A stretch of DNA of 64,000 nucleotides from an uncultured Candidatus Saccharibacteria bacterium (GTDB lineage: Bacteria > Patescibacteriota > Dojkabacteria > SC72), in assembly GCA_964514595.1 (NCBI GenBank), contig CAZEQZ010000001.1:43914-107913 (forward strand), written 5' to 3'. Positions 2,935 through 40,886 of this stretch are shown here, one piece after another. How positions within the stretch are numbered: the first letter of the stretch is position 1; every line of letters begins with the position of its first letter. The translations under genes and the position numbers were made by a program. The notes under the pieces were generated by a model that was not told the origin of the DNA, searched no databases, and worked only from the letters and a program-made list of their open reading frames with translations.

Positions 2935-4483
<1,549 letters not shown>

Positions 4484-4869: not shown

Positions 4870-8003
<3,134 letters not shown>

Positions 8004-22794: not shown

Positions 22795-22823
22795 TTGACG
22801 GATTACTCAATTTCCTCTATTAT
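22795..22823 (+). promoter_or_regulatory. candidate sigma70 promoter TTGACG-17nt-TATTAT for the giant-protein operon
   Basis: Read directly. 64 nt upstream of the ATG at 22887. Confidence 0.45.
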
Positions 22824-22886
22824 TATTCATAGGTTGGGGCACTAAAATTTTACCGTTAAAACAGCGTTTTCTACTGTCTAGAAAAA

Positions 22887-25800
22887 ATGCAAGAAAAGTA
22901 CTGCCTAAAACTAGTAAAAAATATATTCATTTTTCTTGGAATACTGCTCCCAACTTTCTTTCTGTTTTTTATAGAAAAATCGTATGCACTCTCTACAAAT
23001 ACGATAAATTTGCAAGGAAAAATAGTTAGGAATGATACAGGGTATGAGGGATTGAATGTTACTACGGGTAATCCTTCGTGTGTTGTAGCTGGATCAAGTA
23101 ATGATACTTGTGATTTCAGAGTAAGATACTACAGTGCAGCTTCTGGAGGTACACTCTTTCTCACGGAAGTTTTTTCTAACAAAGAGATAGGGCAATACAA
23201 TGGTGCTTTCAATCTATCTCTTGGTTCTGATCCCTCTCCCACAGCTGGTTCATATAGTTCGCTAGATGCACTCGTAGCGGCAGAAAATACGGTATACATA
23301 GAGATAGGTTTCGATCCCGCAGGAGGTAATTCATATACAGAAACGTTCACAAGGATGTCTCTTCAAGCCACTGCATTTGCCATGAGATCAAAATATGCAT
23401 CTCATGCTAATACTGCATTTCAATTTGATACAGCAGCTAATTCCTCCGGATATGCTAGTCCTAGCGCAGGTATGGTTTACTGGGATACAACAGATTCAAC
23501 ACTTAAGGTATATGATGGTGCATCTTGGGTTGATATAGGGAGTGGAGGTACAGGGAGTTCTCTTTGGACACAGGGGACGGGCTTTGCCTATTTGACCACA
23601 TTGACAGATAGTCTGGTTCTCGGTGCTGATTCATATACTGCTATTGGTAGTGATACCTATTCGACTTATGTTGCTGGGTTGGGTGCAAGACCTCCGTTTT
23701 CTTTTGATATGGGCGCAGAAAGAGCTTCAATATCAGGAGATACTGCTAAGTCTGGTTTAACAGTATATTCCAACTACACATCAACAGGAGCTTGGCCGTT
23801 GGTTTTGTTTAAAACTGAAAGCTCTAACTTTGACAATTTGGTTCTAGAAATAGTCCAGGATGGTACAGGTCACCTTATGTCCTTAAAGAAGGGAAGTACA
23901 GAGGTATTTGCATTTGAAAACCCTATGACATTCTTCATTAGGCCCAGAGATGATGCCCCGACGATCTATGAGAATAGGTTGTACAATGTTGGAGGGACAC
24001 TCTATTGGAACGGTACGGCTTTAGGAGGAGGAAGTAGCTCTCTTTGGACAGATGATGGAACATACACATATCTAACAGATACAACAGACGATGTAATAAT
24101 TGGAGGGGATTCTGCATTGAACGCTCAATTCTATTTTGATGTTGCTAATGGAAGATTAGGTATCGGAACCGGAACTCCCACATCTAGGCTTGATATCGCG
24201 GGTGCTAGCTCCATAATCTCAAATAGCTCGGGAGACATCACAATATCTCCCGATGAGACAGTTGTCATAAAGGCACAGAATACAGATCCGAATAACTTGA
24301 TGGAGTGGCAAAATAGTTCTGGTACTGTGTTAAGTTTAATAAATCAGAGTGGATATGCAAGTCTTGGGAAGAGTACAGGTAGTACAACAGCTATGCTTTC
24401 ATTGGGTGCTAATACAGCTTCTGTGGCACAACTGAATTTAGCGGCTTCTAGTGCAATAGATGTGAGTAGTCCTAATACAGGGGATCTTTGGTATAACGGT
24501 ACCAATCTCTATTTCTATGACGGTACTGATCATATTGATCTTTTGGTAGGGAACAGTGATGGAGTTGGATTATTCTCAGAACATGGTTCAGTAGCTAGTG
24601 GTAGCTATCTTAATGTAGAGCATAACGATGATACATATAACATATTAGCAGATGGCTGGATATGTGTAGGGGGTAGTGAAAATGAGAGTTGTACAGGAGG
24701 AAATTGGAAGAATATCAAAGAAGAGAGTATTAGTATTAGGCATGCTTTAAAAGAGGATTGGGAGGATGCAGGAAGTACAGGAATCATAAGAACAGATGTT
24801 AGGGATACCTCTGTATCTCTTTCCCCAGCTTTTAATCCTGGTACAGGGGCAGATGGTGATGTAACGGTGCAGTACAATACAAATATTAATACAACAAGTC
24901 TATCTGCGGGGAGGAGTTGTGCAGATGGTGGAGATGCAGTTAATTACAATATAACTGCATTCCCATCTTCTACAACAGCTACACTTTCAGCTACACCAAG
25001 TACAGGTTGTTTGGCCGTAGGGGATGAGGTATTGATTATAAATCTCCAGGGTACATATACAGCTATGGATAATGTAGGTAACTATGAGACGTTGGAGATA
25101 GCTAATGTCTCTGGGACTACGATTACATTTAAGACAGCCAAGAAGAACTACTATGGGGATGGGTTAGCAGATGATACCAATTTAGGCACTTCTACTAGTA
25201 CGCAAAGAGTTATGTTACAGAGAGTTCCTAATTACAGAAATCTTACAGTTAATTCAGGTGTTAACTTCTATCCTTCTACATGGAATGGTGTAAAGGGAGG
25301 AGTTATATTTTTCAGAGCTAGTGTTAGTGCAAATATTAATGGAACAATAGATGTAAGTGGGATAGGGTATAGAGGAGGTAGTGCAGGTGGAAATCTTCAA
25401 GGGAGCTCAGGAGGAGAGGCATTTTGCGGACCTGGTGGTGCAGGGGCAACAACTACAACAAATGGTACTAGTGGGGCTGGTGGTGGTGGTGGGTATAATG
25501 GTTATTTGGGTGGAAATGGTTACTGTGGTGGTGGTGGTGGTGCAAGTAATGGCTCCACTTTAGGATTGGGTAGTGCTAACAGGGGGGGTTCTGGTGGTGG
25601 CTCCGAGTACGCAGCCGCCGGTAGCGGTGGAGGATATGGTACAGCTGGAAGTGGAGGAGCAAATTATACTGCTGGATCAAATGCTCCTTCTGGTGGGACT
25701 AATGCTTCTGGAGATGGAACTCTGTCGACCAGTGTTACATATAGTGGAGGAGGAGGGGGAGGAACATATGGGGAGGCTAATTTAAGTAAACTCTTTTTTG

Positions 25801-28800
25801 GGAGTGCTGGATCGGGAGGTACTGTAGGAACAGCTGGAGTTTCTGGTTCTGGTGGAATAGGAGGAGGAATAATAGCTGTTTATTCCAAGAGTGTAGTTGT
25901 TTCAGGAATGGTATCATCTAGAGGTACAGGCGGAGCTTCTGCTACAGTTGCTAATGCAGCAGGAGCAGGAGCTGGAGCTGGAGGAAGCATATTGCTTAGT
26001 GGTGAAAGTGTTAATACTGGAACTTCCTTTGTTGGTGCAAGTGGAGGAGCTGGAGGTACAAGTACTGGGTGGGTAGGAGTGAATGGTGGTGCCGGAGGTG
26101 ATGGCCGTATAGCAATATACTACTCTGACTCATATTCTGGTACCACAGCCAACCCCTCTGTTACCAACTACTACCAATCTGGATATAACTCATACGGTAT
26201 ATATAATTCTCCAGTAATAGCTACACCCAATGCTCAAACATATGACAATATTAGATGGAGTCAAGATTTAGATACATACGGTAATATCAGTATACAAACA
26301 AGAAGTGGTAATAGTACAAACCCATTAGATGCATCATGGGAAGAGTGGAGACCATTTGTGGTTAATCAAAACTACATTATGCTTGAAAGTGCCGATACCC
26401 ATACTAACTGGAGCGGTACTAACGCGACTGTCTCTGAAGGAGATGTAACTAGAAATGTGGACTATTTTGAAGATGAGGATGAAACTACTGCTACAAATGT
26501 AACTAAGGTGGTTAGTAGTACGAATGGGGGATATGTGGAGGCCGCAGTATCAAATGAAGACCTAAGTAACTATGACTACATAACTGCTTGGGTTAGGGCA
26601 TCTCAAATAGGGAATACCTTGAGATTAGGTTTTGGAGAAAGTGCTGGTACTGAACAGTATGAAGATATTACAGTAGATGCATCGGATACGTGGCAGAAGA
26701 TATATTGGGATATATCTGATATAGCTACAGGAGATAGGGATGATGTGACCGTACTAAGATTAACCAATAAGACGGGATCAAGTAATACGATATATTTAGA
26801 TAATGTTAGAGCAGAAAAATTAATAACAGATAACGATGGTAGTGATATAAGCAGTACACCCAATAACTATATGCAGTACAGAGTAGTATTTAGTACTACG
26901 AACCTTGCATACCAACCAATACTTAGGAACATAACCATATCCTATAACTCGGGATATCGCATAGTTATACATGATAATAATAACGTTAGAGTATACAACT
27001 ACAGTGGTAGTACAAAATATCTCAAACTAGATGTAGCAACATCTGGAGGTGGAGGTGGTGGAAGCGGAACTGGCTTTGTAGCAGGAGTTGCCACATCCAC
27101 AATAGCAGATGGAGAGGATGCTGTGGCGTTCACATTTAACACACCTACTTCATATACGGATCCGTCATCCAAGCTACTCTCTGTAATGAATAACAGTGTG
27201 GAGAAGATGTATCTGGATTCAAATGGAAACCTATATGTAGCAGGAAGTGTAATAGCGGGAAATGGTTTTGGTTCTGGATTGATTAATAATACAGGAGGGG
27301 CTGTGACAGAAAGAACATTAGTAACGATAGATCCTTCAACAAATGACTCCTTCATTACAACAAACATCGAAAATCAAATGGGAGCATTTGGTGTCGTAAC
27401 AGGAGTAAGTGTAAGTGGGGATATAAATAAGAATGGCGTTTGTGATGATGGAGATACATGTATGGTTGTATTTGAGGGAATTACTAATGTGAATACATAT
27501 GATGCCACTACAGCCTCTGTAGGGGACTATATATATTCATATTCTGAATATGGATATGCGAAAGCTTCATCTGAACAAGAGAATGGGTTAATAGGGATGG
27601 TTATGTCAACAGAAAACGCTGCTTCAGGATATCTTAAGATAGTCTTCTTTACACAAAATAAGAGTGCTGCTGATTTCTATCTTAATGTTGGTTTTGATAA
27701 GAATGCGTATAGGGATATGTACACACTATTGGCCAAAGATTATGAAGCTCTAAGTCTAGCGGAGAGAAGGGGACTAATAGAGAGTAATCAATCAGAAAGT
27801 ATTATGTTTGATACTTTTGTAGATGGATTAAAGATAGATAGTGAAAATTCTGATGTAGGCTTGGATATATACAATCAAAAGATGGGACTATGGGGTGGAC
27901 TATCATTAACAGATTCCACAACAGACATGGCATCTAATAGATATTTTGGTACTACTGGAGCAACATTAATAGATGCTGCATACTACTACGATAGGTCTCA
28001 GACAGGGGAGGTTGGCCAGGATTCCACAATAGGTGATTTGATTACCGATGGTATAGATCCGTATTGGTACAAGGGAGTCTCATACATAAGTGGGACTACA
28101 GCTCTATCTGCTAAATACAATGGGCTACTTTTCAATGTCACAGGTGCATACGGTACGTCCTCTGAGCATGGAAGTATAGAGATAGAGGTAGCAAGCCAGA
28201 CAGTTAGTGGTATTACAGCAAATATTTCATCTTCCGATGGTACATGTACAGCTACAGGTGCTACATTAACATTTGGAAATGAGTATTCATTCACATCTGG
28301 TAGTTGTAGTGGGAGTAGTATTAAGATCACACCTCAAAGAACAGATTATGCGGTGGGGGATAAATTTAAGATAGCAAGTTGGTATTTAGAACCAACCACA
28401 GCTAACGACAGAGGGAGTAGGAGAGATTTTCCAGAGAGATCCATCATCATACCTACTGCAACAGCAGGGGATATATATATAACCATAGTAGACTACGATA
28501 CACAGAGAGTATGGATGAAGTTTAATTCAGATACAGATGCAATAGCCACAGGTAATATCTTAATAGATAACGCAGACAAAGATATTAATAAGATATTCAT
28601 GATAAACGGAGATATGTATGTAGATTTTACTACAGTATCATCTAATGTAGATGCTATTGTAGTAGGATTTGCAAGGGATGATGCATGGGCAGTAAATGGA
28701 GCAACCTGGTACAAGTATGATACCAATATAGGGTTAAGAAATAATGGAGATGGTTATACTACAACAACAAATCCATATACATTCTCAGATGGGGATGGGA

Positions 28801-31800
28801 GTGGGGTATCATTTGTAGGTCTAGATTATGAGGTGTTTGGTAGTAGTACTATAAAAGGAATAGATAGTAATGCAGAAGATACCACAGGCATCTACTATAG
28901 CAACCCAGTAACATTCCAATACAATAGTAACAAAGCATACCTTTGGATGAATGCATATATAGATCCAGATGATACTTCAGGAGATATTTCAGTTTCCGTA
29001 TCTAACGATGGGGGTAGTACATATGTTGCAGGGAGCCTAATAAGAGCTACGGGTAGTACAGTTAAGGAGTATGAATATAGTTTCAACCTTGCTGATTCTG
29101 ATAATGAATATATAGTAAAGATAGAGCTAGAAAGAGGTAGTAGTAAGAAATCAACGGTATATGTAAATAGTTGGGGGTTAGCACAAATGGATATAAGTGG
29201 AGTAGGAGGTGGAGGATTATTTACTAATACAGAGAATGCAGTTCCCCACAAGGGTTATGTTGAAGTACTACACGGACAGAATACAAATAACATATTAGCT
29301 ACAGGTTGGGTATACAATACTAATTTAGCTAGATGGATTAAGACTAGTGAGAGTAGTATATCCGTAAGTCATGTAAAAGATTCGGATTGGTTAAAAGACC
29401 CTGATATGATACCTGCTACACCTATATGGGTAGATCCAATAACAGGAGAGCCTGGAGAGTTAGATGCAGGTACTGGGGCAGATGGTGATATAACAGTAAG
29501 TACTAATTCAGATATTAATGTAAATAAATTAATTACGAGTAGGAATGCTGCTTGTCCAGATGCTCCTAATTACAATATAACTACATTTAGTGTTGATGGA
29601 ACAGAGGCTACCATTACACCAGCTGCAGATACTGCTAATAGTTGTTTATCTCCAGGGGATGAGGTATTAATTATAAACCTTCAAGGTACATACTCTGCAA
29701 TGGTCAATGTCGGGAACTATGAGACCCTAACTATCGACTCTATAGATGTTACGGGTACAACTATTACATTCACAGAAGCTAAATCCAACTATTATGGAGG
29801 GAATATTAATGATGATAGTAACTTAGGTACTGCAACTAACACACAGAGAGTTATGATGCAAAGGGTGCCTCAATATGATGATGTTACTGTAAATGCAGGA
29901 ATAAACTTCTATCCTTCTGCATGGAATGGAATAAAGGGAGGGGTAATGTTCTTTAGGGCCACAGGCGAAGTAAATATTAATGGAACAATACATGCAGATG
30001 GGAAAGGTTATTTAGGTGCTACACAACATGGAGGATATAGTTACGCGGGTGGTGGTGGTGGTGAGGCTTTTTGTGGTGAAGGTGGTGATGGTAGTACTAC
30101 AAATGGGACGGATGGTGCCGCGGGTGGTGGTGGTGGTGCATCAGGCGGATTGGGAGGAGATGGATATTGTGGAGGAGGAGGAGGGGGAAGGGTTATTGAG
30201 GATCCGGGCCGAGGATCAGTAGGGCAAGGAGGTGCAGGTGGAGGTGGTGGTAGATATTCGGGTGGTGGTGGTGGTGGTTATGGGACTCCTGGTTCTGGCG
30301 GCCATAGAAGTTTTGATAACTACGGTGAAGACGGAGGGGCTAATACTTCGGGAGATGGTGGTGTCTCTACAGGAACTGGTGCAGGTGGAGGAGGAGGTGG
30401 TAGCTATGGTATTGAATCCTTATCAAAATTAATGCTTGGATCTGGTGGTGGGAGGGGTGGTAATCAAACATCTCCTATGCTGGGAGGTGCAGGAGGAAAT
30501 GGCGGGGGAATAGTTAATATTGCTGGTGGAACGATTAGGGTTAATGGGGCTTTAAGTAGTAATGGGGTCAATGGTGCAAATGGTGCAAGTGGAACATCAT
30601 ACTACACAGGTGGTGGTGGTGGTGGTGCGGGTGGGTCAGTGAGGGTAGAGGGGGGAGTTGTTAATATTGGGTCATCTTTGCTTGCTGCAAATGGTGGCGA
30701 TGGTGGAATCGGTAGAATATCCAATGTGGCAACTCAAAATGGAGGTGCAGGTGGTGATGGTAGAATCGCAATCTATTTTGCTACCAGTTATGTAGGCATC
30801 TCGGGAACACCTACAGTAACAAACTTCTATACAGTAGGGGAGGAAGTAGTGCAGAATCCTTCTAGTGGAAGTGATGGAGATTTAACACTTAGTACAGCTG
30901 GAACGGTAAACATAAACAGAACAAGCCCTATGGGTGTGAGATCTTGCTCAGATGGTGGTGATGCTGTTAACTATAACATTGTTGCATTTAACGTTGCTGG
31001 GAATGAAGCAACATTGAGTGTTTCTCCTAGTAGTGGATGTCTGGATTCGGGGGACGAAGTTCTGATAATCAATCTTCAGGGCTCATACTCAGCTATGAAC
31101 AATGTTGGTAATTGGGAAATATTAACAATAGATGAGGTAGTGGGTACAACAGTTACATTTACAACAACTAAAACAAAATATTACGGTAATAACTTAGATG
31201 ATGATACAAACCTAGGTACTGCAACAAATACGCAAAGAGTTATGCTACAGAGGGTACCTCAATATGAGGATGTTACTATAGGTGTCGGTGTAACACTTGA
31301 ACCAGATGCCTGGAATGGGGTAAAAGGTGGGGTTATGTTCTTCAAGGCAAGCGGTAGTGTAAGTATTAACGGAAATATAAGTGCAAGTAGTAAGGGATTC
31401 TTAGGGGGGGTTACAGAAGGTGGATATAATCATGGTGGTGGGCAGGGAGGTGATTCTTTATGTGGTCCTGGAGGTTCTCCCGGAAGAGTAGTCTCAGGAG
31501 GGGATGGTGCAGGTGGTGGTGGTGGTTATACGGCTGGTACTGGAGATGGATATTGTGGTGGTGGTGGTGGTGGTGAGCCAACAGGCGGTATAGGTAGTGT
31601 TACAAGTGGTGGTGCAGGTGGTGGTGGTGGACGAAGAGCAGGTGGTGGCGCGGGTGGTTATGGCACTGCTGGGACATCAGGAACGTATAATGCATTAACC
31701 TATGGTGCTACTGATGGGGGGACTAACAGTTCGGGTGATGGTGGTGCAGTAGCAACTGGAATTGGCCCAGGTGGTGGTGGAGGAACATATGGAGATGAAC

Positions 31801-34800
31801 AATTAACAAAACTATTCCTTGGTTCGGGAGGTGGTAGGGGAGGAAATAATGCGTCCCCTCAACTCGGAGGTGCAGGTGGTAATGGTGGTGGTATTGTGTA
31901 TATAGTTGCCGACTCTGTTACAGTGTCTGGTACTTTAGCAAGTAACGGTGCTACGGGTGGTAATGGTGCAAGTGGTACATCATACTATACAGGTGCTGGA
32001 GGAGGTGGGTCAGGCGGTGCAGTTAGGGTTGAGGGAAGAACGGTGAATATAGGTTCCTCTGCACTCACAGTTACAGGGGGAAGCAGTGGAGTTGGTAGAT
32101 TTAACAATACGGCAGTAAATAATGGTGGTACTGGTGGTAGTGGTAGAGTAGCAGTCTACTATACAGATACATACTCCGGTACATCTGGGACCCCAGCTGT
32201 CACAAACTTCTACGAACTAGATCCAAGTACGGTAGGAGATGAGGATGTAGAAGCTCCAACGGGGATAATAAGGGCTATGATTGGTTTAACTGAAATATCA
32301 TTAGAGTCTGGTATAGATGTAGGGGATGGTAGGGATGGTAATGTGACAGTTGCTTATAATACGAATATAAATAGGACAAGTTTAATAGCAGGAAGGAGTT
32401 GTGCTGATGGCGGGGATGCCGTTAACTACAATGTTCTTGCTTTTAATTCTGCTGGGACAGAGGCAACGTTAGCTAGAGCTCCAAGTTTGGGTTGTTTAAA
32501 TGCAGGAGATGAAGTTTTAGTAATAAATCTTGCAGGTACTTCGTCCGCATTTTTTAATGTTGGCAACTATGAGACATTTAGAGTTCAAAGTATAACCGGT
32601 ACCACAGTTAGGTTTACTACGGCAAAAACCAAATATTATGGTAATAATCCTAATGATGATTCAAATTTAGGGGTAGCAAATAATACACAGAGAGTCATGC
32701 TACAGAGGGTCCCAAATTACCAGAATTTAACAGTAAATAATGGAGTTACCTTCTATCCGGATGAATGGTCAGCAGAGGCCAAGGAAAATTCGGTATATAG
32801 AGAAGGAAAGGGTGGTGTAATGTTCTTTAGAGCAACAGGGAGTGTAAATATAAATGGTACTATAAGCGCTTCCGGAAAGGGGTACAGGGGTGGTGGGAGG
32901 ACTGTGCAAGGAATATATGAGGGCTTTAAGGGAGAGTCGTATACGGGAGGGTATAATTTATATACATCCTGGTCTCCTAACGGAGGAGGAGGAGGTGGTG
33001 GTGGTGATTATTCTGTGTCTTCAAATACTGAGGCTGGTGGTGCAGGAGGTTCCTATGGAACAAAGGGGCAGGATGGTGGAGCTGGGGGGACATTTGGTGA
33101 TCAAACAAAAGGTATTGCCGGGGATATATATGCTGTAGGAGAAGATCTTAGTGATAGGATATATTTTGGTTCTGGTGGTGGTGCGGGATCTAATGATAAT
33201 GACACGGCTAATGGTCCATACGGAGGTGCAGGTGGAGATGGGGGAGGTATAATTGGAGTGTTTTCTGGAAGTATTGTGGTTAGTGGGAGCGTTGCTAATA
33301 ACGGTGACAATGGTGAAGCTGGATATAGGGGTTCTGCGAGCGACAATGAAACTGGAGGAGGTGGTGGGGGGGCAGGTGGGTCCATATATCTTGCTGGTGC
33401 AGGTGTATCTGTAGGAAGTAGTTTAGTTACAGTAAATAATGGTATAGGCGGTTTGGCTGGTGAGACAGCAGCTGCCGAAGCTGGTGGTGTTGGTGGTCTC
33501 GGCCGTATAGCTATTCACTACTCTGAAACATACTCTGGTACATCTGGTAATCCAACTGTTACAAACTTCTATGAAGGAAGCTCATACTCATACGGTATGT
33601 ATCACTCCAATGAAATAGTAACAAAAGGTGCTGGATCATTCTCAGATTTAAGATGGGATTACAATAATAATGGATACGGTAGAATATCTGTTCAAACAAG
33701 AACAGGTGCCACTGCAGATTCCACAGATGGCTCATGGGAGGAGTGGAGATCCACTAGTCCAACATATGAAGCACAATCCCTAAATGATGCTGAGAACGCA
33801 TCCTCTTGGGTTGGCACTAATGTTGTAGTATCTGATGGAGATGTGACAAGGGATGTGGACTTCTTCGAAGATGAGGATGAATTTACAACCGGTAGTATAA
33901 CTAAGATGATATCCTCTACTAATGGAGGATATGCAGAATCAACAATATCCTCAACTGATCTCTCAGGATATGAATATATAACATTCTGGGTTAAAGCTTC
34001 GGTATTAGGGCAGAAACTATCCTTTAGTATGGGAGAGAGTTCAGGTGATGAGCATACTGAGGATATAGTGATAGATAGTTTGGAATGGCAGAAGGTATAT
34101 TGGGATTTAGCTGATATACCCGCTGAAAATAGAGATGCTATAACAAAACTTAGAATAACCAACCTATCCTCAGTAATTAACACCTTCTATATAGATAACG
34201 TGAGTGCAGAAGGAAGAGGTACTAGCAGTATAGATAGGATTAATTCCACACCAAATGACTATTTACAATATAGAGTGATATTTACAACCACAGATTCTAG
34301 ATATAGACCAGAGCTACAAAGCATATCCTTCACATACAATATCGGATATGAAATTGTACAGATAGATACAAATAGAGTAAGGCTATACAACTACTCAGGA
34401 TATACTCAAAAATTAAGACTAGACATAGCTACTGGGGGATTGATGATAGATTTAAGATCCAGTCTAGGTTCGAGTACTGTCAATCTAGCACCAACCATAG
34501 CTCAACAAGATTGGGACGACTACACAAACAGTCTGTGGGTGAACAAGACAGGCACAGAGGGTAACTTCATGAGATTCCAGCAGTATGGAGTGGACAAATT
34601 CGTCTTAAGTGCGGATGGTACTATGGAGATGAGGGGAGGCACCATTACATTAGGAGATACTGGATTAAAGGGGAGTATAAGATTTAATACCGGTACCAAT
34701 AAGTTAGAATTCAGTAATGATGGCTCAACATGGATACCCGTTGCTGACTCTCTCTCCGCAGTTACTCTTGCTGCAGAATACTCAGGAGCGGTACTGTCTG

Positions 34801-35240
34801 CTGATGGTAGTAATAATACCGGGACAATGATCGCAGATAGTGATGCCTCATACAATTCTATGAACTACTATCAATGGAATAGTTCCGAATCTACACTACA
34901 AGATTACGATATCAGGCTAAGATTTATGCTTCCCTCTAACTTCAGTGGTTGGGGAAGTGGTGGAGTTACATTCAATTTTGTAACAGAAGCTACTGCAACA
35001 TCTAGTAATGAATTAGATTTCTATATATTTGAGGAAAGCTCTGGAAGCGTAGATGGAAGTTCGGAGAACCAAGTTTCCTCCTCTGCAGGGATATGGACCT
35101 CAACAACAATCTTAGGCTCATCCCTCACAGAGTGTGTCTCAGCAGGAGATGTATGTATGTTCGTTATTAAAATGTCTTCTAGAAATGATAATTATGTAAG
35201 GGTAGGTGATATAGAGATAGTATATGACAGGAAACTATAA
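22887..35240 (+). CDS. giant (4117 aa) secreted/surface modular protein: four beta-helix-like modules with Gly/Cys-rich tracts and two CBM-like beta-sandwich domains
   Basis: N-terminal hydrophobic signal/anchor. Four copies of an approximately 450-aa module (GDEVLIINLQGTYSAM.NVGNYETL...NTQRVM.QRVP.Y...FYPS.WNG.KGGV.FFRA.G ... GGGI..I......V.G..S..G ... GG.GG.GRIAIYY). Two copies of an approximately 280-aa domain ending (I/F)Y(L/I)DNV. Uninterrupted ORF. Confidence 0.85.
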   Translation: MQEKYCLKLVKNIFIFLGILLPTFFLFFIEKSYALSTNTINLQGKIVRNDTGYEGLNVTTGNPSCVVAGSSNDTCDFRVRYYSAASGGTLFLTEVFSNKEIGQYNGAFNLSLGSDPSPTAGSYSSLDALVAAENTVYIEIGFDPAGGNSYTETFTRMSLQATAFAMRSKYASHANTAFQFDTAANSSGYASPSAGMVYWDTTDSTLKVYDGASWVDIGSGGTGSSLWTQGTGFAYLTTLTDSLVLGADSYTAIGSDTYSTYVAGLGARPPFSFDMGAERASISGDTAKSGLTVYSNYTSTGAWPLVLFKTESSNFDNLVLEIVQDGTGHLMSLKKGSTEVFAFENPMTFFIRPRDDAPTIYENRLYNVGGTLYWNGTALGGGSSSLWTDDGTYTYLTDTTDDVIIGGDSALNAQFYFDVANGRLGIGTGTPTSRLDIAGASSIISNSSGDITISPDETVVIKAQNTDPNNLMEWQNSSGTVLSLINQSGYASLGKSTGSTTAMLSLGANTASVAQLNLAASSAIDVSSPNTGDLWYNGTNLYFYDGTDHIDLLVGNSDGVGLFSEHGSVASGSYLNVEHNDDTYNILADGWICVGGSENESCTGGNWKNIKEESISIRHALKEDWEDAGSTGIIRTDVRDTSVSLSPAFNPGTGADGDVTVQYNTNINTTSLSAGRSCADGGDAVNYNITAFPSSTTATLSATPSTGCLAVGDEVLIINLQGTYTAMDNVGNYETLEIANVSGTTITFKTAKKNYYGDGLADDTNLGTSTSTQRVMLQRVPNYRNLTVNSGVNFYPSTWNGVKGGVIFFRASVSANINGTIDVSGIGYRGGSAGGNLQGSSGGEAFCGPGGAGATTTTNGTSGAGGGGGYNGYLGGNGYCGGGGGASNGSTLGLGSANRGGSGGGSEYAAAGSGGGYGTAGSGGANYTAGSNAPSGGTNASGDGTLSTSVTYSGGGGGGTYGEANLSKLFFGSAGSGGTVGTAGVSGSGGIGGGIIAVYSKSVVVSGMVSSRGTGGASATVANAAGAGAGAGGSILLSGESVNTGTSFVGASGGAGGTSTGWVGVNGGAGGDGRIAIYYSDSYSGTTANPSVTNYYQSGYNSYGIYNSPVIATPNAQTYDNIRWSQDLDTYGNISIQTRSGNSTNPLDASWEEWRPFVVNQNYIMLESADTHTNWSGTNATVSEGDVTRNVDYFEDEDETTATNVTKVVSSTNGGYVEAAVSNEDLSNYDYITAWVRASQIGNTLRLGFGESAGTEQYEDITVDASDTWQKIYWDISDIATGDRDDVTVLRLTNKTGSSNTIYLDNVRAEKLITDNDGSDISSTPNNYMQYRVVFSTTNLAYQPILRNITISYNSGYRIVIHDNNNVRVYNYSGSTKYLKLDVATSGGGGGGSGTGFVAGVATSTIADGEDAVAFTFNTPTSYTDPSSKLLSVMNNSVEKMYLDSNGNLYVAGSVIAGNGFGSGLINNTGGAVTERTLVTIDPSTNDSFITTNIENQMGAFGVVTGVSVSGDINKNGVCDDGDTCMVVFEGITNVNTYDATTASVGDYIYSYSEYGYAKASSEQENGLIGMVMSTENAASGYLKIVFFTQNKSAADFYLNVGFDKNAYRDMYTLLAKDYEALSLAERRGLIESNQSESIMFDTFVDGLKIDSENSDVGLDIYNQKMGLWGGLSLTDSTTDMASNRYFGTTGATLIDAAYYYDRSQTGEVGQDSTIGDLITDGIDPYWYKGVSYISGTTALSAKYNGLLFNVTGAYGTSSEHGSIEIEVASQTVSGITANISSSDGTCTATGATLTFGNEYSFTSGSCSGSSIKITPQRTDYAVGDKFKIASWYLEPTTANDRGSRRDFPERSIIIPTATAGDIYITIVDYDTQRVWMKFNSDTDAIATGNILIDNADKDINKIFMINGDMYVDFTTVSSNVDAIVVGFARDDAWAVNGATWYKYDTNIGLRNNGDGYTTTTNPYTFSDGDGSGVSFVGLDYEVFGSSTIKGIDSNAEDTTGIYYSNPVTFQYNSNKAYLWMNAYIDPDDTSGDISVSVSNDGGSTYVAGSLIRATGSTVKEYEYSFNLADSDNEYIVKIELERGSSKKSTVYVNSWGLAQMDISGVGGGGLFTNTENAVPHKGYVEVLHGQNTNNILATGWVYNTNLARWIKTSESSISVSHVKDSDWLKDPDMIPATPIWVDPITGEPGELDAGTGADGDITVSTNSDINVNKLITSRNAACPDAPNYNITTFSVDGTEATITPAADTANSCLSPGDEVLIINLQGTYSAMVNVGNYETLTIDSIDVTGTTITFTEAKSNYYGGNINDDSNLGTATNTQRVMMQRVPQYDDVTVNAGINFYPSAWNGIKGGVMFFRATGEVNINGTIHADGKGYLGATQHGGYSYAGGGGGEAFCGEGGDGSTTNGTDGAAGGGGGASGGLGGDGYCGGGGGGRVIEDPGRGSVGQGGAGGGGGRYSGGGGGGYGTPGSGGHRSFDNYGEDGGANTSGDGGVSTGTGAGGGGGGSYGIESLSKLMLGSGGGRGGNQTSPMLGGAGGNGGGIVNIAGGTIRVNGALSSNGVNGANGASGTSYYTGGGGGGAGGSVRVEGGVVNIGSSLLAANGGDGGIGRISNVATQNGGAGGDGRIAIYFATSYVGISGTPTVTNFYTVGEEVVQNPSSGSDGDLTLSTAGTVNINRTSPMGVRSCSDGGDAVNYNIVAFNVAGNEATLSVSPSSGCLDSGDEVLIINLQGSYSAMNNVGNWEILTIDEVVGTTVTFTTTKTKYYGNNLDDDTNLGTATNTQRVMLQRVPQYEDVTIGVGVTLEPDAWNGVKGGVMFFKASGSVSINGNISASSKGFLGGVTEGGYNHGGGQGGDSLCGPGGSPGRVVSGGDGAGGGGGYTAGTGDGYCGGGGGGEPTGGIGSVTSGGAGGGGGRRAGGGAGGYGTAGTSGTYNALTYGATDGGTNSSGDGGAVATGIGPGGGGGTYGDEQLTKLFLGSGGGRGGNNASPQLGGAGGNGGGIVYIVADSVTVSGTLASNGATGGNGASGTSYYTGAGGGGSGGAVRVEGRTVNIGSSALTVTGGSSGVGRFNNTAVNNGGTGGSGRVAVYYTDTYSGTSGTPAVTNFYELDPSTVGDEDVEAPTGIIRAMIGLTEISLESGIDVGDGRDGNVTVAYNTNINRTSLIAGRSCADGGDAVNYNVLAFNSAGTEATLARAPSLGCLNAGDEVLVINLAGTSSAFFNVGNYETFRVQSITGTTVRFTTAKTKYYGNNPNDDSNLGVANNTQRVMLQRVPNYQNLTVNNGVTFYPDEWSAEAKENSVYREGKGGVMFFRATGSVNINGTISASGKGYRGGGRTVQGIYEGFKGESYTGGYNLYTSWSPNGGGGGGGGDYSVSSNTEAGGAGGSYGTKGQDGGAGGTFGDQTKGIAGDIYAVGEDLSDRIYFGSGGGAGSNDNDTANGPYGGAGGDGGGIIGVFSGSIVVSGSVANNGDNGEAGYRGSASDNETGGGGGGAGGSIYLAGAGVSVGSSLVTVNNGIGGLAGETAAAEAGGVGGLGRIAIHYSETYSGTSGNPTVTNFYEGSSYSYGMYHSNEIVTKGAGSFSDLRWDYNNNGYGRISVQTRTGATADSTDGSWEEWRSTSPTYEAQSLNDAENASSWVGTNVVVSDGDVTRDVDFFEDEDEFTTGSITKMISSTNGGYAESTISSTDLSGYEYITFWVKASVLGQKLSFSMGESSGDEHTEDIVIDSLEWQKVYWDLADIPAENRDAITKLRITNLSSVINTFYIDNVSAEGRGTSSIDRINSTPNDYLQYRVIFTTTDSRYRPELQSISFTYNIGYEIVQIDTNRVRLYNYSGYTQKLRLDIATGGLMIDLRSSLGSSTVNLAPTIAQQDWDDYTNSLWVNKTGTEGNFMRFQQYGVDKFVLSADGTMEMRGGTITLGDTGLKGSIRFNTGTNKLEFSNDGSTWIPVADSLSAVTLAAEYSGAVLSADGSNNTGTMIADSDASYNSMNYYQWNSSESTLQDYDIRLRFMLPSNFSGWGSGGVTFNFVTEATATSSNELDFYIFEESSGSVDGSSENQVSSSAGIWTSTTILGSSLTECVSAGDVCMFVIKMSSRNDNYVRVGDIEIVYDRKL
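24790..26175 (+). repeat. beta-helix/Gly-rich module copy 1 (coding repeat)
   Basis: Amino-acid-level repeat, about 60-70% identity in core blocks to the copies at 29462, 30860, 32310 and 48805. Confidence 0.6.
29462..30830 (+). repeat. beta-helix/Gly-rich module copy 2
   Basis: As above. Confidence 0.6.
30860..32220 (+). repeat. beta-helix/Gly-rich module copy 3
   Basis: As above. Confidence 0.6.
32310..33575 (+). repeat. beta-helix/Gly-rich module copy 4
   Basis: As above. Confidence 0.6.
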
Positions 35241-35271
35241 GGCATAAAATATTTAGAAGAGCTCTCTACAC

Positions 35272-38200
35272 ATGAGAAAATTTGATGTATTAAAACTTAA
35301 AAAAATATCTAAGCGAGGAAGATTAAGAGTATTAATACTTCTTCTCATTGGTATTTTGGTATCAGTATCTGCTCTGTGGTTTTCTTCCCTATCTAAGACC
35401 AAGCCAAATGATGATATATTTTTCCTAGATACCAATAGTGGGGCAATACTTGGTAACAAAAATCCAACATTTAATGTAAGCTTTGGAAAGAGGGATGAAC
35501 CTGAAAAGCAGTGGGTTAGATTTGAAGCCCAAGTTAGTTCACAAAATCCGTTCGAAGGGAAAAATGAGAATCTTTTCACAAAATTAGCAGACTTGTTCAA
35601 ACGGGAGAAAGAGTACGGCATAGAAATGAGTTTGAATGGTGTTGTACTTAGTGAAACAGAGAAACTAGATTTGGATGGAAAAGAAGAGGTAATTAAAACT
35701 GTTGCAGACATTCTTGGAACAGATGATGTTAGAACGTCTACGGAGTTGATAGAAAGTGGTAGGGTAATAGGGGAGTATAGTGAGGAAGCAGTATCAAAAA
35801 AGAGTGTATTAAACAAAAATGTTGCGGATGGGGTTGATATTGAGTATCAGATATTGGAAGGTTTGGGCTTAAAGGAAGAAATAGTGATACGAAATCTAGA
35901 TGAATATACAAAAGGTTGTGGAGAGGATTTAATGGGGTGTAAGTTGCCTCTTAATGAGTTTAATTTTGATCTCAAACTGGATGAGGGTTTAGAATTACGG
36001 AAAGGTTGGTTAACTTTGAAGGGTGGGAGTACACAGACATACTATTTCACTGATAAGGACGGTAATTATGTAGCGCATTTTCTTCCCAACTGGGCGATAG
36101 ATAGTGCTGGAGAGAAGACATATGATGTTCCTATGCAAGTAGAAGATGCAGGTGGCGGTAACTACAGGATTAAGGTTATAGTTGATATAGAGTGGTTATT
36201 TAGTCCTGGAAGAGTATATCCAATAAGGATAGATCCAAGCATAGTTCATGATACTAAGAATCAATTCGATCAGGGAATCTTTGATAGAACTAATAGTTCT
36301 GATGATCCTGCAATTACTATTACTAACGCAAACAATTTCTTGCATGAAATATATGCATTCACATCAGATGGGACATTTTCTCCACCTCTAGGAGTTACTG
36401 AAGTAAAAGTATTAGTTGTTGGGGGAGGAGGAGGTGGTGGATCATCAGGGGGTAGTGCAGCAGGAGCAGGTGGTGGTGGTGCAGGCGGTTTAGTATGGGA
36501 AGATTCATATGTATTTTCATCTTTAGAAATAGAAGAAGGAGTACCAATAACCGTGGGTAGTGGAGGAAGTGGAGGGGCTAGTGGTGATAGCAATGGACAG
36601 AATGGTGGAGATAGTACATTTGGTACATTAACAGCCATTGGAGGAGGTGGTGGTGGACACAGAACTTCGAATGGTGGTGATGGAGGTTCTGGTGGTGGTG
36701 TAGGTGGTGCTACAGTAACACCTGGGTCTGGAACTGTTGGACAGGGGCACGATGGAGGAAATGGCACTACCAGTGGAGATGGTTCTGCAGGGGGTGGTGG
36801 TGGTGCCGGAGAAGCTGGGTATGATTTTATTAGTGGAAGCTTTGGAGGAGCTGGTGGAGTTGGTATTTATTTAGGGAATATGTTAGGTGATAGTTTAGGA
36901 GATGATGGTTGGTTTGCAGGAGGAGGAGGTGGCGGTGCTACCGTGCATGCTGGTGGTACAGGAGGAAAAGGTGGTGGTGGTACTGGTGGTGTTTCGACCT
37001 CTAATGCCCAAGATGGTGTGGCAGGTACAGGTGGAGGTGGAGGTGGAGGTGGAAGAAGTGGATCCTCTGGTGGTTCTGGTGGCTCTGGTATAGTTATCAT
37101 TGCTATACCCAAAAAACACTCATATGGTCAATATATATCACCCGTTATAGATTTTGAAGACTCATACTACGTCGAACATATGTCTTTAGATATATCTGGT
37201 GTTCATACAGGTGGTGGGGAAAATATGTATAGTACAGTGGGTTTGGAGGCTCAATGGAATTTCAATGAAATATGGGGTGATGTTGCAGAAAATAATGATG
37301 GAACTTGCGGAAGCTCTTGTAATGCTAATCTTGTTAATTTCTCAAATACATTAGCACAGGATATACTGCCTATGAGTGGTTGGACATATATTAATAGGAA
37401 ATGGGGGAATGGTTCCATAATGATTGATGGAGTAGATGATTATATTAATTTAACCACACCAATATTCACTGCGGAAAATGGCTCTTTCTCTTTCTGGTTT
37501 AGAAAGGATATAGCTCCATCCTTTTTAGAGTGCTTCTTTGGTTATTTCGAGACATCAGTAGCAGACTCTTGTGTCGGTATAAACGATGAAGGGAAGATAG
37601 TTATTGAAGATCTAGCTTTTGCGAGCAATATTTCCTCCGAACAATCATATGCCGATGGAGAGTGGCATCATGTTGTTGTTAATGGTAACTATACAGGAGA
37701 TACTTTAGAGCTTTGGGTCGATGGGATTTTGATATCTACGTCTAAATGGGAACAGCCTGCCTATATGACTACTCAATTGCTTGGTGCTAGATATAATGAA
37801 AGTACTGGGACCCCGGAAAATCTCTTTAGAGGGATGATAGATACGGTTGTAAAGTACAATCGTCCTTTATTAGCTTCGGAAATACTTTCTAATTACCAAT
37901 CGGGCAATGTTGAGTTCAGATACAGAACTAGTAACGATGGTTCGACATGGGGCGTTTGGGAGGGTGGTGAGGAGGCAGATGTAGATATAACCCAGGATTA
38001 TACAAAATGGTCTGACTCAGTATCCGATACTCGTATACTGCAACTGAGTAATGATTCGAACATAAAGGTTGGGGTAAATGATAGTCTAAGAGTTGATTCA
38101 GATTATACTAAAGTTGATACAGTCAACGGCTTGGTCGGACTTTGGCATTTAGATGAAGAGTCCGGTTCTGGTGCGTATCTCCTAGATTATAGTGATAACG

Positions 38201-40182
38201 ATAATCATGGGACTCCAAATGGCACTACATATGTAGAGGGCAAAATAGGGGGAGCTAGGGATTTCGATGGGTCAAGTGATTATATTAGTACAGATTTCAG
38301 TAGTGAGGCAAGCTCTCTTTTCGCAGACTCAAGTGGATCTTGGACTGTAGAAGCATGGTTTAAACATAAAGGGGGGATGAGCTCTGATGGTGTTATAGTT
38401 GGGAGGGGAGGGGGAACTGGGACTTCAGCTACATTTGGAATATTTGTAAATAGTAGTGGGGCACTTCGTACTGTTCTAAGAGGTTCCTATACCACCTTGA
38501 TGAGCAATGTTGCTAATGATCAATGGTGCCATGTTGTAGTAACTTGGACGGGCGGTGAAGCTAGAGGTTATGTAAATGGAGAGGATGTTGGAACTCTTTC
38601 TGTTGGATCTGCTTCCCTACAATCAAATAATCTCGTTATAGGGGCTACCAACAATGGCTCAAGCGCGCGCTATAGAGGTCAGATAGATGAGGTTAGAGTA
38701 TACGAGACTGCTAGAAGTGGGAAAGAAGTAGCAGAGTCATACAGGATGGGTAAAAATCATTATGTATACAGTACACTAGAAACGGGTATGGATCTGTCAG
38801 AAAGCACAAAGATACCGTTTTGGATAGCATCTGACAAATTGGGCAGTAACATAGATTTGATTGTGGGGAATTCTCCAAGCTCTAACTATTTGACAGATTC
38901 TAATGTAGTTGGATTATGGAAGATGGATGAGATGTCAGGTTCTGGTGCATACATTAATGATAGTAGCGGAAATGATAATCATGCTACTCCATCGGGAACA
39001 ACTTACACAGAAGGAAGGGTTGGAGGTGCAAGGTATTTTAATGGAACAAGTGATTACATGCTAACTAGTGATTTTGGTTTTGATTACGACAACATTACGA
39101 TAGAGGCTTGGGTTAAACCGGAAGATTTAAGTGGAAGAAGAACTCTCTTAGATCTTGGGGCTGAAACCACTTTGGTTCCTCAGTTAGAGGTGGGAACATG
39201 TGATGGTGGATCTAACGCAATCTGTGTTGTCACGCCTGGTGTATGGCAGGCTCAAACAGTCGACAATGTTATCTCAGAAGGAGAGTGGGTACATATTGCC
39301 TATACTAAGGAAGGAACAGGAGCTACACATAAAATATATGTTAACGGAGTAGAGCAACCTCTTGTAACGAATAATAGTGAGACCTATAGCTCTACGTCGG
39401 TAGGAAAGAATATTGGAAGACGTGGTGATAATACGCAGTTTTTTAATGGGAACATAGATGAGCTTCGCATCTCTGATATAGTACGCACAGGTGAGGTAAT
39501 TAGGGAAGCATATGAAATTACAAAGAGAAAGTATTCTATAAAGATTGACTTCAAAGCGGACCTTCAGTTATCTAACTTGATTTCAGACTCAAATGATCTA
39601 TCCTTTACAATTAGTGAGACCTCATATGGCACAACAAAGGAGATAGAGAACTTAAGTCTCTCGGATAGGATAATTATAAAAGAATATGCCGATTCTGCAG
39701 AGTATATTGCACAAGGCGTCGTAGACAGCATAAACGAAGACACCGGAGCAGTGACAGTAGAGCAGTGGGAATTAGGTAGTACATTTCCTTCTGGTGGATA
39801 TTCAGAGGACGCAGTTGTATTTAAATGGCAGGAAGAAATATTTGATATTAGGGATATTCTAGACACCCAAAGAGATGATATATCTACGTTTATGCTTGTA
39901 CTAAATAATCAAGTAGGGGCAAACTACTGGATAGATGGTATAAGGAGTGCCAAATATCTTGCACCTCTAGATTTAAGTCAAGGTTTAGGAGATCCAACGC
40001 AGTATTTCCAGTATAAGATTATGTTCTCAACCTATGATGAGTACATAACCCCCACTCTAAACAAGGTCCAGATAGACTATACCTCTGAAATACTTGTGGA
40101 GCCACCACTGAGAAGAATAATGAGACATGGTAAATGGTTCTATACGGGAGAGGAGCAGCCCTTCTGGTGGGCACAGGAGTAG
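35272..40182 (+). CDS. giant (1636 aa) surface protein: N-terminal TM, Gly-rich tract, three concanavalin-A-like/LamG (Laminin_G_3-type) lectin domains, C-terminal CBM-like tail
   Basis: Three repeats, each with (W.LDE.SGSGAY..D.S.NDNHGTP.GTTY.EG..GGAR.F.G.SDY...), W..EAW.K and W.H...T core blocks; the third ends G.IDE.R.Y/IS. Tail shares Y.QY.I.F.T motif with the upstream giant gene. 32-nt spacing suggests co-transcription. Confidence 0.85.
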   Translation: MRKFDVLKLKKISKRGRLRVLILLLIGILVSVSALWFSSLSKTKPNDDIFFLDTNSGAILGNKNPTFNVSFGKRDEPEKQWVRFEAQVSSQNPFEGKNENLFTKLADLFKREKEYGIEMSLNGVVLSETEKLDLDGKEEVIKTVADILGTDDVRTSTELIESGRVIGEYSEEAVSKKSVLNKNVADGVDIEYQILEGLGLKEEIVIRNLDEYTKGCGEDLMGCKLPLNEFNFDLKLDEGLELRKGWLTLKGGSTQTYYFTDKDGNYVAHFLPNWAIDSAGEKTYDVPMQVEDAGGGNYRIKVIVDIEWLFSPGRVYPIRIDPSIVHDTKNQFDQGIFDRTNSSDDPAITITNANNFLHEIYAFTSDGTFSPPLGVTEVKVLVVGGGGGGGSSGGSAAGAGGGGAGGLVWEDSYVFSSLEIEEGVPITVGSGGSGGASGDSNGQNGGDSTFGTLTAIGGGGGGHRTSNGGDGGSGGGVGGATVTPGSGTVGQGHDGGNGTTSGDGSAGGGGGAGEAGYDFISGSFGGAGGVGIYLGNMLGDSLGDDGWFAGGGGGGATVHAGGTGGKGGGGTGGVSTSNAQDGVAGTGGGGGGGGRSGSSGGSGGSGIVIIAIPKKHSYGQYISPVIDFEDSYYVEHMSLDISGVHTGGGENMYSTVGLEAQWNFNEIWGDVAENNDGTCGSSCNANLVNFSNTLAQDILPMSGWTYINRKWGNGSIMIDGVDDYINLTTPIFTAENGSFSFWFRKDIAPSFLECFFGYFETSVADSCVGINDEGKIVIEDLAFASNISSEQSYADGEWHHVVVNGNYTGDTLELWVDGILISTSKWEQPAYMTTQLLGARYNESTGTPENLFRGMIDTVVKYNRPLLASEILSNYQSGNVEFRYRTSNDGSTWGVWEGGEEADVDITQDYTKWSDSVSDTRILQLSNDSNIKVGVNDSLRVDSDYTKVDTVNGLVGLWHLDEESGSGAYLLDYSDNDNHGTPNGTTYVEGKIGGARDFDGSSDYISTDFSSEASSLFADSSGSWTVEAWFKHKGGMSSDGVIVGRGGGTGTSATFGIFVNSSGALRTVLRGSYTTLMSNVANDQWCHVVVTWTGGEARGYVNGEDVGTLSVGSASLQSNNLVIGATNNGSSARYRGQIDEVRVYETARSGKEVAESYRMGKNHYVYSTLETGMDLSESTKIPFWIASDKLGSNIDLIVGNSPSSNYLTDSNVVGLWKMDEMSGSGAYINDSSGNDNHATPSGTTYTEGRVGGARYFNGTSDYMLTSDFGFDYDNITIEAWVKPEDLSGRRTLLDLGAETTLVPQLEVGTCDGGSNAICVVTPGVWQAQTVDNVISEGEWVHIAYTKEGTGATHKIYVNGVEQPLVTNNSETYSSTSVGKNIGRRGDNTQFFNGNIDELRISDIVRTGEVIREAYEITKRKYSIKIDFKADLQLSNLISDSNDLSFTISETSYGTTKEIENLSLSDRIIIKEYADSAEYIAQGVVDSINEDTGAVTVEQWELGSTFPSGGYSEDAVVFKWQEEIFDIRDILDTQRDDISTFMLVLNNQVGANYWIDGIRSAKYLAPLDLSQGLGDPTQYFQYKIMFSTYDEYITPTLNKVQIDYTSEILVEPPLRRIMRHGKWFYTGEEQPFWWAQE

Positions 40183-40220
40183 AATATATACTAATAGAAA
40201 TAAATCTAGTAGAATATACT

Positions 40221-40886
40221 ATGAGTGTTGCATCGGATGCCATAAAAGATAATAAAAAAGTATTACTACTAGCACTCGGGCTTCTAGTAGTCTCTGTATT
40301 TGGTTTAATTTTAACTAGAGAAGGCATGATAATTCAACCAGACAATTTAGTACAACCTCCGTCCTCTCCTAATACATATTCTCAACCAAACAATGTACTA
40401 GAGGAGGGTGTAGACTATAAGGCAGTGATCAAAACATCTGTGGGAGACATAGAGGTAGATCTGTTTGAGGGCGAAACTCCACAAACCGTGAATAGCTTTG
40501 TATTTCTTGCAGGGGAAAGATTCTTTGATCGATTAATATTTCATAGAGTAATAGAGGGATTTGTTATACAGGGAGGAGATCCTAAAGGAGATGGAACAGG
40601 AGGCCCGGGATATCAGATACCGGATGAAATTACAGAGAGAAAATATATGCCATATACTCTAGGGATGGCAAATGCAGGTCCAAATACCAATGGCTCTCAG
40701 TTTTTCATTACATCAGGCAATATCCTAGAGGATAACCTGAAAGCCTTAGATGGAGGATACACAATATTTGGAAAAGTAACGAAGGGATTTGCTGTAGTGG
40801 ATTCTATTGAAAGAGTAGAAACAGATCGAAATGACAAGCCGATAAATCCTGTAGTCATAGAGGCGGTCCAAATAATTGAGAATTAA
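40221..40886 (+). CDS. membrane-anchored cyclophilin-type peptidyl-prolyl cis-trans isomerase
   Basis: HRVIEGFVIQGGDP...GMANAGPNTNGSQFFIT...GYTIFGKV cyclophilin signatures. N-terminal TM helix. ATG at 40221 preferred over the longer ORF start at 40134, which overlaps the upstream gene. Confidence 0.85.
   Translation: MSVASDAIKDNKKVLLLALGLLVVSVFGLILTREGMIIQPDNLVQPPSSPNTYSQPNNVLEEGVDYKAVIKTSVGDIEVDLFEGETPQTVNSFVFLAGERFFDRLIFHRVIEGFVIQGGDPKGDGTGGPGYQIPDEITERKYMPYTLGMANAGPNTNGSQFFITSGNILEDNLKALDGGYTIFGKVTKGFAVVDSIERVETDRNDKPINPVVIEAVQIIEN

Follow-up and report, generated by a model that had tools for sequence, protein, structure and literature searches.

A LamG-domain protein and its giant neighbour in a probable Dojkabacterium: a candidate two-gene surface fibre cassette in a conserved chromosomal slot

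Bacteria of the candidate phyla radiation (CPR) are thought to live attached to other cells, and the molecules by which they attach are almost unknown. What such a molecule might look like is the question raised by a 64,000-nt stretch of chromosomal DNA on contig CAZEQZ010000001.1 (the window), whose source organism is most likely a Dojkabacterium (WS6, CPR). Its forward strand carries a gene at 35272..40182 (1636 aa plus stop, ATG start; 'hypothetical protein' in public sources) whose product contains LamG domains, and directly upstream lies the gene of a 4117-aa partner (22887..35240, +), hereafter the giant, with a Sec-type signal peptide as read from its sequence. With moderate confidence, we read the LamG protein as an extracytoplasmic, envelope-attached fibre or adhesin subunit that would bind a host or ligand and would be co-expressed with its secreted giant partner. 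Metagenomic contigs, the longest of 760 kb, carry the identical 1636-aa protein, and among the 8,000 best word-sharing candidates scored, 1,434 were homologues at E <= 0.001. Most of them are nameless; the few named ones are called 'LamG domain-containing protein' and come chiefly from Candidatus Dojkabacteria / candidate division WS6, which is our ground for assigning the organism. The family is large, uncharacterised and already catalogued, the protein is real but fairly ordinary, and our analysis mainly confirms and refines the annotation that its relatives already carry.

A whole-protein Pfam scan placed Laminin_G_3 (PF13385) on three stretches of the LamG protein with E 1e-58. When the domains were scanned separately, in segments, all three scored well above the gathering score of 27.6 bits: LamG1 (37243..37896, +; residues 658-875, Pfam envelope 719-871) reached 53.2 bits, LamG2 (38119..38739, +; residues 950-1156, envelope 999-1154) 92.5 bits and LamG3 (38905..39510, +; residues 1212-1413, envelope 1257-1410) 83.3 bits. 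LamG2 and LamG3 share 34 % identity (E 6e-31), and LamG1 is more distant. A preliminary description of this locus had proposed three concanavalin A (ConA)-like domains with the entry motif W.LDE.SGSGAY..D.S.N.NH; the motif is present at residues 958 (WHLDEESGSGAYLLDYSDNDNHG) and 1216 (WKMDEMSGSGAYINDSSGNDNHA), while the third copy, at residue 662, is degenerate (WNFNE). Given the Pfam scores and the entry motif, the presence of three LamG domains is confirmed far beyond chance. Among solved structures, the best match by sequence was an extracellular arabinanase domain (5hon, E 5e-9), and this match covers only the LamG-like accessory region.

The same description called the three domains tandem, which they are not, as they are kept apart by pieces of a module that the LamG protein shares with the giant. 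This scaffold module of ~270 aa occurs as two uninterrupted copies in the giant (residues 1090-1360 and 3556-3824) and also in orthologous partner proteins of two other genomes. A likeness between the C-terminal segment of the LamG protein and the giant had already been noted, and BLASTP bore it out: residues 1510-1605 match giant residues 1269-1355 (E 1e-10) and 3723-3817 (E 4e-8), and the shared segment is the last third of the module. We also built a hidden Markov model (HMM) of the scaffold from five module copies. In hmmsearch, its columns 126-171 fell on residues 1163-1209 of the LamG protein (i-E 8e-4) and its columns 179-266 on residues 1518-1605 (i-E 6e-13), and the 308 residues between these two matches hold LamG3 and a small barrel.

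When a family profile of each inter-LamG segment was aligned with the module profile by hhalign, four pieces of the scaffold were found, all in module order. Piece A (37117..37197, +; residues 616-642) corresponds to module columns 12-38 and is the weakest, with a marginal P of 3e-4. Piece B (37903..38028, +; residues 878-919, columns 43-92, E 3e-6) contains VEFRYRTSNDGSTWGVW, and piece C (38761..38877, +; residues 1164-1202, columns 127-164) aligned with E 9e-7 and a shuffle z of 5.3. Piece D (39826..40089, +; residues 1519-1606, columns 180-267, hhalign 3e-17) is the segment that had been written as 'Y.QY.I.F.T...P.L..I.'. Control alignments with reversed or column-shuffled module profiles gave P >= 0.005, typically 0.1-0.5, and those for piece A gave 0.05-0.5. 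With the insertions removed, the spliced sequence aligned end to end with both modules of the giant. The interleaving of LamG domains and scaffold recurs across homologues, in which the cassettes range from 0 to 9 LamG and from 0 to 3 Gly_rich_2 domains. We read the LamG domains as cassettes that would have been inserted at fixed points of one scaffold module, a reading that in some relatives extends to the Gly-rich domains.

Between LamG3 and piece D lies a small six-stranded beta-barrel (39532..39822, +; residues 1421-1517), which AlphaFold2 (AF2) modelled with a predicted local distance difference test score (pLDDT) above 90. Foldseek returned no significant PDB neighbour for this barrel (best E 5.5e-3), and hhalign returned no match to the giant's module (E 0.51). 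A MAFFT alignment and some contiguous HMM matches had equated the barrel with module columns 100-178, an assignment that we rejected on its hhalign E of 0.51 versus 9e-7 for piece C. In AF2, piece D alone folds poorly, with a block-mean pLDDT of 43-66 against more than 90 for the adjoining barrel; this weakly suggests that D needs the other pieces.

In addition to its two scaffold modules, the giant contains four diverged Gly-rich repeat modules of ~460 aa, and its DNA repeat families lie ~4.6, 1.39 and 1.46 kb apart with 65-85 % identity. As a whole it has zero Pfam matches at E <= 0.01, and the sole weak match of its Gly-rich modules was to the N-terminal domain of AgmC, a gliding motility protein (E 6.5e-9, far below the model cut-off). 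Two domains resembling carbohydrate-binding modules (CBMs) had been ascribed to the giant, and the regions in question (residues 1100-1360 and 3560-3820) matched nothing in Pfam at E <= 1 or in NCBIfam at E <= 0.1. Since the CBM identity of these modules is unsupported, only the three LamG domains are left to back the proposed total of at least five carbohydrate-binding beta-sandwiches in the two genes. Orthologues of the partner measure 809, 1685, 3781 and, in the window, 4117 aa with both termini conserved, which indicates that whole modules are gained and lost as the gene changes in length. We also considered 22800-40300 as a target of a diversity-generating retroelement and rejected it: no direct repeats there exceed 85 % identity, and those present come from diverged modules of the giant or from runs of Gly codons. 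No reverse transcriptase was found among the neighbouring genes scanned, which were part of the window's open reading frames (ORFs).

Upstream of LamG1, the LamG protein carries a Gly_rich_2 domain (PF21722; 36373..37104, +; residues 368-611) with 41 % Gly. Pfam scored it at 80.9-85.5 bits over these residues (85.5 bits for the domain; whole-protein E 2e-22), with a gathering score of 24.3 bits. A Foldseek search with this region of the AF2 model matched tail tip chains of mycobacteriophage Bxb1 (9d93) with E 5.5e-6 and fibre gp24 of cyanophage Pam3 (7ypx/7yfw) with E 9e-5 and 2e-4, scores that the high Gly content may inflate; the model under these matches has a mean pLDDT of 56, with 70-86 in parts of the Gly-rich domain. 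By sequence, the family profile matched the Pam3 fibre weakly (E 0.002), and a PDB sequence search with the Gly-rich segment gave zero matches. In PHROGs, the domain matched phrog_2295 with E 8e-38 and, with E 8e-14, a second family that bears the label tail-fibre assembly, and 243 predicted viral proteins in BFVD matched the region at E <= 1e-3, some of them also with ConA-like domains. Because model confidence is moderate in this region, it is likely but not secure that the domain is of the TNF-like plus glycine-rich receptor-binding tip type of phage tail fibres.

The Gly-rich tract had been taken as homologous to that of the giant, and the searches went against this. An HMM of the Gly_rich_2 region, built from 12 collinear family members and run on the giant with every filter off, scored <= 0.9 bits on every Gly-rich stretch, no better than on locally shuffled giants. 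BLASTP with composition correction likewise found no significant match between the tract and the giant. The Gly content is 41 % in the LamG protein's tract and 33-37 % in the giant's; judged from these comparisons, the likeness of both proteins appears to be one of composition only, the giant's Gly-rich modules being another entity.

How the protein would reach and hold the cell surface is suggested by its N-terminus. A Kyte-Doolittle scan gave each of the two proteins one hydrophobic segment only, which is N-terminal in both, and neither protein has an LPXTG motif; in the LamG protein the segment lies at about residues 15-40 (35314..35391, +), is modelled by AF2 as a helix over 14-40, and could act either as signal anchor or as signal peptide. 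Cleavage might occur at V-S-A (residues 32-34), and P-N-D at residues 45-47 forms invariant columns in the family. A C-terminal LPXTG and a second hydrophobic segment are absent from the LamG protein, in which Pfam matched neither SLH nor any other wall-binding domain. Since the lone hydrophobic segment is N-terminal and there is no LPXTG, SLH or second membrane segment, we take the protein to be exported and probably anchored at its N-terminus, with cleavage after residue 34 as an alternative.

The segment is followed by a conserved N-terminal domain (N-domain; 35389..36321, +; about residues 40-350), which has no model in Pfam, NCBIfam or PHROG and is the best-conserved part of the family, with BLASTP identity of up to 66 %. 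When all 1.84 billion cluster representatives were scanned, 428 clusters proved to contain it; among the 150 best, nearly all have it within the first ~600 residues, in proteins of up to 6399 aa. Every one of the 15 distant carriers scanned (2.5-3.7 kb of protein each) has Laminin_G_3, and none is an Rhs protein. The N-domain may serve as a base or presentation unit close to the cell. For residues 1-660, the AF2 model was too low in confidence (mean pLDDT 56) to give the N-domain a fold, and weak Foldseek likenesses (E 0.03-0.4) to GH92/GH65 enzymes and the periplasmic domain of YidC were disregarded. Neither the N-domain nor the module of the giant gave more than a few fragments in word-indexed protein searches, which brought no gain.

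N-domain residues 124-327 show 32 % identity (E 3e-17) to residues 227-405 of an RHS + GIY-YIG protein of Coriobacteriales (L024 9332-15400), and the matching stretch ends with a common motif, W..SP.RV.PI..DP. The second half of the N-domain also occurs in a Microbacterium locus (L025 9314-16107). It is thus common to CPR LamG proteins and to Gram-positive proteins of the Rhs/PA14 type. The Microbacterium locus consists of overlapping ORFs with PA14 and RHS_repeat matches. At the other end, the LamG protein closes with a near-invariant tail, (G)P...MRHGKWF..G..Q.FWW (40111..40179, +). In 26 loci this MRHGKWF tail was found only at the C-terminus of orthologues, and it ends every syntenic orthologue (window, L003-L021). 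We know of no sorting signal that matches it.

Conservation of the locus was assessed with three homologues taken by exact sequence (L003-L005) and 21 species-representative loci, screened with the window's proteins. The order partner C-terminus, N-domain gene, tail, cyclophilin, ComEA, ComEC (and ArgRS, arginyl-tRNA synthetase) is kept in 17 of the 23 loci with a full-length N-domain; L001 and L002 carry the protein identical to that of the window, and 15 of the 17 syntenic loci are distinct from the window's contig. LeuRS (leucyl-tRNA synthetase) lies upstream of the pair wherever the locus extends far enough. The LamG gene itself ranges from ~2.8 to 7.7 kb across loci, and in both proteins the ends are conserved and the middles highly variable. 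In L023, neither a peptidyl-prolyl isomerase (PPIase) nor ComEA was found within 5.6 kb downstream. In L003, two insertions stand between the LamG gene and the cyclophilin (15580-16856), a 189-aa ORF and the gene of a toxin of the AbiEii family, breaking the tight cluster.

The preliminary description also placed the start of the LamG gene just past the giant's stop, and indeed the stop codon ends at 35240 and leaves a spacer of 31 nt (35241..35271, +). The corresponding gap is 4, 48 and -1 nt in L003, L004 and L005. Our scan found no terminator-like site in this spacer, and the lone promoter-like site near it (35224-35253) matches 9 of 12 positions. Across the scanned region there were 35 promoter-like matches, fewer than the 57 +/- 8 of shuffled sequences. 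The promoter proposed earlier, TTGACG-17-TATTAT at 22795, is present in the spacer between LeuRS and the giant, and it comes closer to the consensus than any other site in the scanned region. Because the spacer is short and same-stranded, has no terminator-like site and joins genes whose adjacency is conserved, co-transcription of the giant and the LamG gene is plausible and the most likely arrangement.

Taken as a model, these features would fit together as follows. The N-terminal hydrophobic helix would export the LamG protein and probably anchor it; the conserved N-domain would form the base near the cell, with the Gly_rich_2 domain and the three LamG beta-sandwiches further out. Most likely, these outer domains would bind molecules on the surface of another cell or of a substrate, probably glycoproteins or glycans. 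The LamG protein and the giant would be made together and form a surface fibre, gain and loss of cassettes would tune binding specificity, and the adjoining anchored cyclophilin may help fold both large proteins. The data show which domains are present, how the scaffold is split, that the hydrophobic segment is single and N-terminal, and that the gene order is conserved; from these features we infer the surface location of the LamG protein, its ligand binding, its co-transcription and any interaction with the partner. Recognition of host-surface glycans, as proposed in the preliminary description, is a reasonable inference that agrees with published proposals for LamG proteins of CPR/DPANN symbionts (PMC11310336, PMC10266531).

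Several points weigh against this favoured reading. The LamG fold is found also in enzymes and in non-lectin binding modules, and the fold alone does not prove lectin activity. Host attachment of the organism is assumed from its lineage. That all relatives keep the pair in one slot among housekeeping genes would be expected of a core envelope component just as much as of a host-specific adhesin. The AF2 model of residues 1-660 has the mean pLDDT of 56 given above and reaches 70-86 only in some stretches of its Gly-rich domain. Since the scaffold module is known here by sequence and not by fold, the insertion points could be borders of small sub-domains rather than loops of one fold.

The pair might instead be a core envelope structure, a surface coat or S-layer-like fibre whose LamG and Gly-rich domains serve self-assembly or bind the cell's own wall polymers. 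Its presence in the same housekeeping slot in the 17 of 23 loci, the strong conservation of the N-terminal domain and the C-terminal tail, and the membrane-anchored cyclophilin that always follows and could be a foldase for a bulk envelope protein all agree with this. However, the variable middle (0-9 LamG, 2.8-7.7 kb) is more typical of surfaces under diversifying pressure, the search for SLH and other wall-binding Pfam domains found none, and Gly_rich_2 is typical of phage receptor-binding tips, so that we regard this explanation as unlikely, if still worth keeping in view. The Gly_rich_2 domain also bears on whether the protein is a domesticated or resident phage receptor-binding protein, such as a prophage or tailocin fibre. 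Gly_rich_2 and ConA-like domains occur together in phage proteins, and the PHROG matches point the same way, but the context is housekeeping, with no phage structural, chaperone or integrase genes nearby, the chromosomal slot is conserved across species, and an N-terminal hydrophobic anchor is not a baseplate-docking domain. In addition, tblastn against 50,697 phage records yielded one LamG-level match, in the cyanophage Synechococcus phage S-SKS1. The genomic context largely refutes a phage origin, and we find it scarcely credible.

The genes downstream suggest a part or accessory in DNA uptake, in which the fibre pair would be coupled to ComEA/ComEC, for example by docking to prey or host before import. 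The pair, the PPIase, ComEA, ComEC and the metallo-beta-lactamase (MBL) gene lie on one strand with gaps of 38, 35 and 2 nt and a 35-nt overlap, no terminator-like site was found in the spacers scanned (up to 41500), and the gene order is kept in most related loci. Yet the whole LeuRS-to-ArgRS stretch is syntenic, and the order may reflect genome stability rather than function; pilin and secretin genes are not adjacent, and the tight cluster is broken before the PPIase in L003 and has no PPIase or ComEA within reach in L023. We give this explanation little credence. A secreted or surface-bound carbohydrate-active enzyme, with the ConA-like domains as catalytic or substrate-binding modules of a glycanase, seems very improbable to us: Laminin_G_3 does belong to the ConA-like lectin/glucanase superfamily, the arabinanase 5hon is the top solved-structure match, and some family members give faint matches to Pfam families related to glycoside hydrolases, but the LamG protein matched no catalytic glycoside hydrolase or lyase family at E <= 0.1, and the 5hon match is confined to the accessory region. 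Returning to the fibre or adhesin that we favour, its extension to one modular fibre whose scaffold tolerates nested cassettes, which is retargeted to new hosts by swaps and is coupled through cyclophilin, ComEA and ComEC to host-DNA acquisition, is quite unlikely as a whole.

The surroundings of the pair are as follows. The window holds an rRNA operon and tRNAs and then genes on the + strand in the order S1, Clp ATPase, RadA, Rho, M23/LysM peptidase, LeuRS, giant, LamG gene, cyclophilin, ComEA, ComEC, MBL-fold, ArgRS. The cyclophilin-type PPIase (40221..40886, +; 221 aa) has its likely true start at ATG 40221. A call from the first ATG (40134-40886) overlaps the LamG gene by 49 nt, and since ATG 40221 fits the 218-220 aa of the orthologues, this overlap is probably a start-codon artefact. 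Its N-terminal hydrophobic anchor points to an extracytoplasmic foldase directly downstream of the two giant exported proteins. ComEC is split in the window (41674-44152) into a 553-aa ORF (DUF4131 + Competence) and a 283-aa metallo-beta-lactamase ORF that overlap by 35 nt, and the same split is found in L001-L005. Further downstream lies a 575-aa ORF (48407-50134) whose one Pfam match, to EF-hand, is below threshold and not convincing; its counterpart position holds an unannotated 496-aa ORF in L004 and a RuBisCO-like large-subunit gene in L003 and L005.

Other features concern the window as a whole. The 23S rRNA gene (4869-8005) measures 3137 nt versus 2925 positions in the model, with ~200 nt extra that may be an insertion or intron, and the 16S is of normal length. 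Shine-Dalgarno sequences are almost entirely missing upstream of the 14 genes checked (e.g. 20337, 22887, 35272, 40922 and 44531), although the end of the 16S rRNA carries the usual ...CCUCCUUUC anti-Shine-Dalgarno sequence. Because most genes in the window are without a Shine-Dalgarno sequence, this check is uninformative for the LamG gene. GC skew is positive in all 2-kb bins from 1 to 64000 and the cumulative skew climbs steadily, and all ORFs matching protein families except UvrA are on the + strand, which together suggest a single replichore with strong co-orientation.

The locus offers a concrete candidate for CPR attachment: two genes for a putative fibre, conserved as a cassette, with LamG and phage-fibre-like binding modules that would be exchangeable, in a fixed genomic slot that spans a whole class. 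The split scaffold, if true, would be a clear case of repeated nested domain insertion and could guide the choice of domain boundaries for structural and binding work.

Proteins with several LamG/ConA-like domains at the surface are a recognised feature of CPR bacteria, DPANN archaea and their phages (PMC11310336, PMC10266531), and adhesion has been proposed for those of the CPR/DPANN symbionts (PMC11310336, PMC10266531). The LamG protein resembles them in being large and exported, in having several Laminin_G_3 domains, in coming from an organism that is ultra-small and probably episymbiotic, and in that its gene is clustered with another giant surface-protein gene. Unlike the others, this sub-family holds a fixed chromosomal slot and combines a frame of N-domain, split scaffold, terminal barrel and MRHGKWF tail, of which we found no earlier description. 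A likeness of size exists to the products of the giant genes of Omnitrophota and to the SPEARE proteins of nanohaloarchaea, which are likewise exported, very large and encoded by an unusual share of a small genome; in contrast to the nanohaloarchaeal giants (PMC10266531), no ATPase or secretion-system domains were found in this pair, and the domain content differs. With the Coriobacteriales RHS + GIY-YIG protein (2023 aa), the second half of the N-domain is common, whereas the RHS repeats and the toxin domain are not part of the LamG protein, in which neither RHS_repeat nor a toxin Pfam domain was matched.

With phage tail-fibre tips such as those of Pam3 gp24 and Bxb1, the LamG protein probably shares the fold of its Gly_rich_2 region, and it has strands rich in GGGGxGG of the same kind. 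For Pam3 gp24, the authors assigned host-receptor recognition to the TNF-like/glycine-rich domains from the structure, with Salmonella phage S16 gp38 as the closest structural relative and a resemblance to the glycine-rich ligand-binding domain of ALK/LTK (PMC9608196). Our Foldseek matches to this ALK/LTK domain (7lir, 7mzy) were non-significant (E 0.2-0.4), and the TNF-like plus polyglycine likeness is a fold-level analogy only. Unlike the phage tips, Gly_rich_2 is here one module within a 1636-aa cellular protein, which has no phage context, fibre-chaperone gene or N-terminal baseplate-docking helix. None of these additions is categorically new; beyond the known multi-LamG proteins, the locus adds a Gly-rich domain that is likely of the phage-tip type, a split scaffold, a fixed slot with variable middles, and a conserved N-domain and tail.

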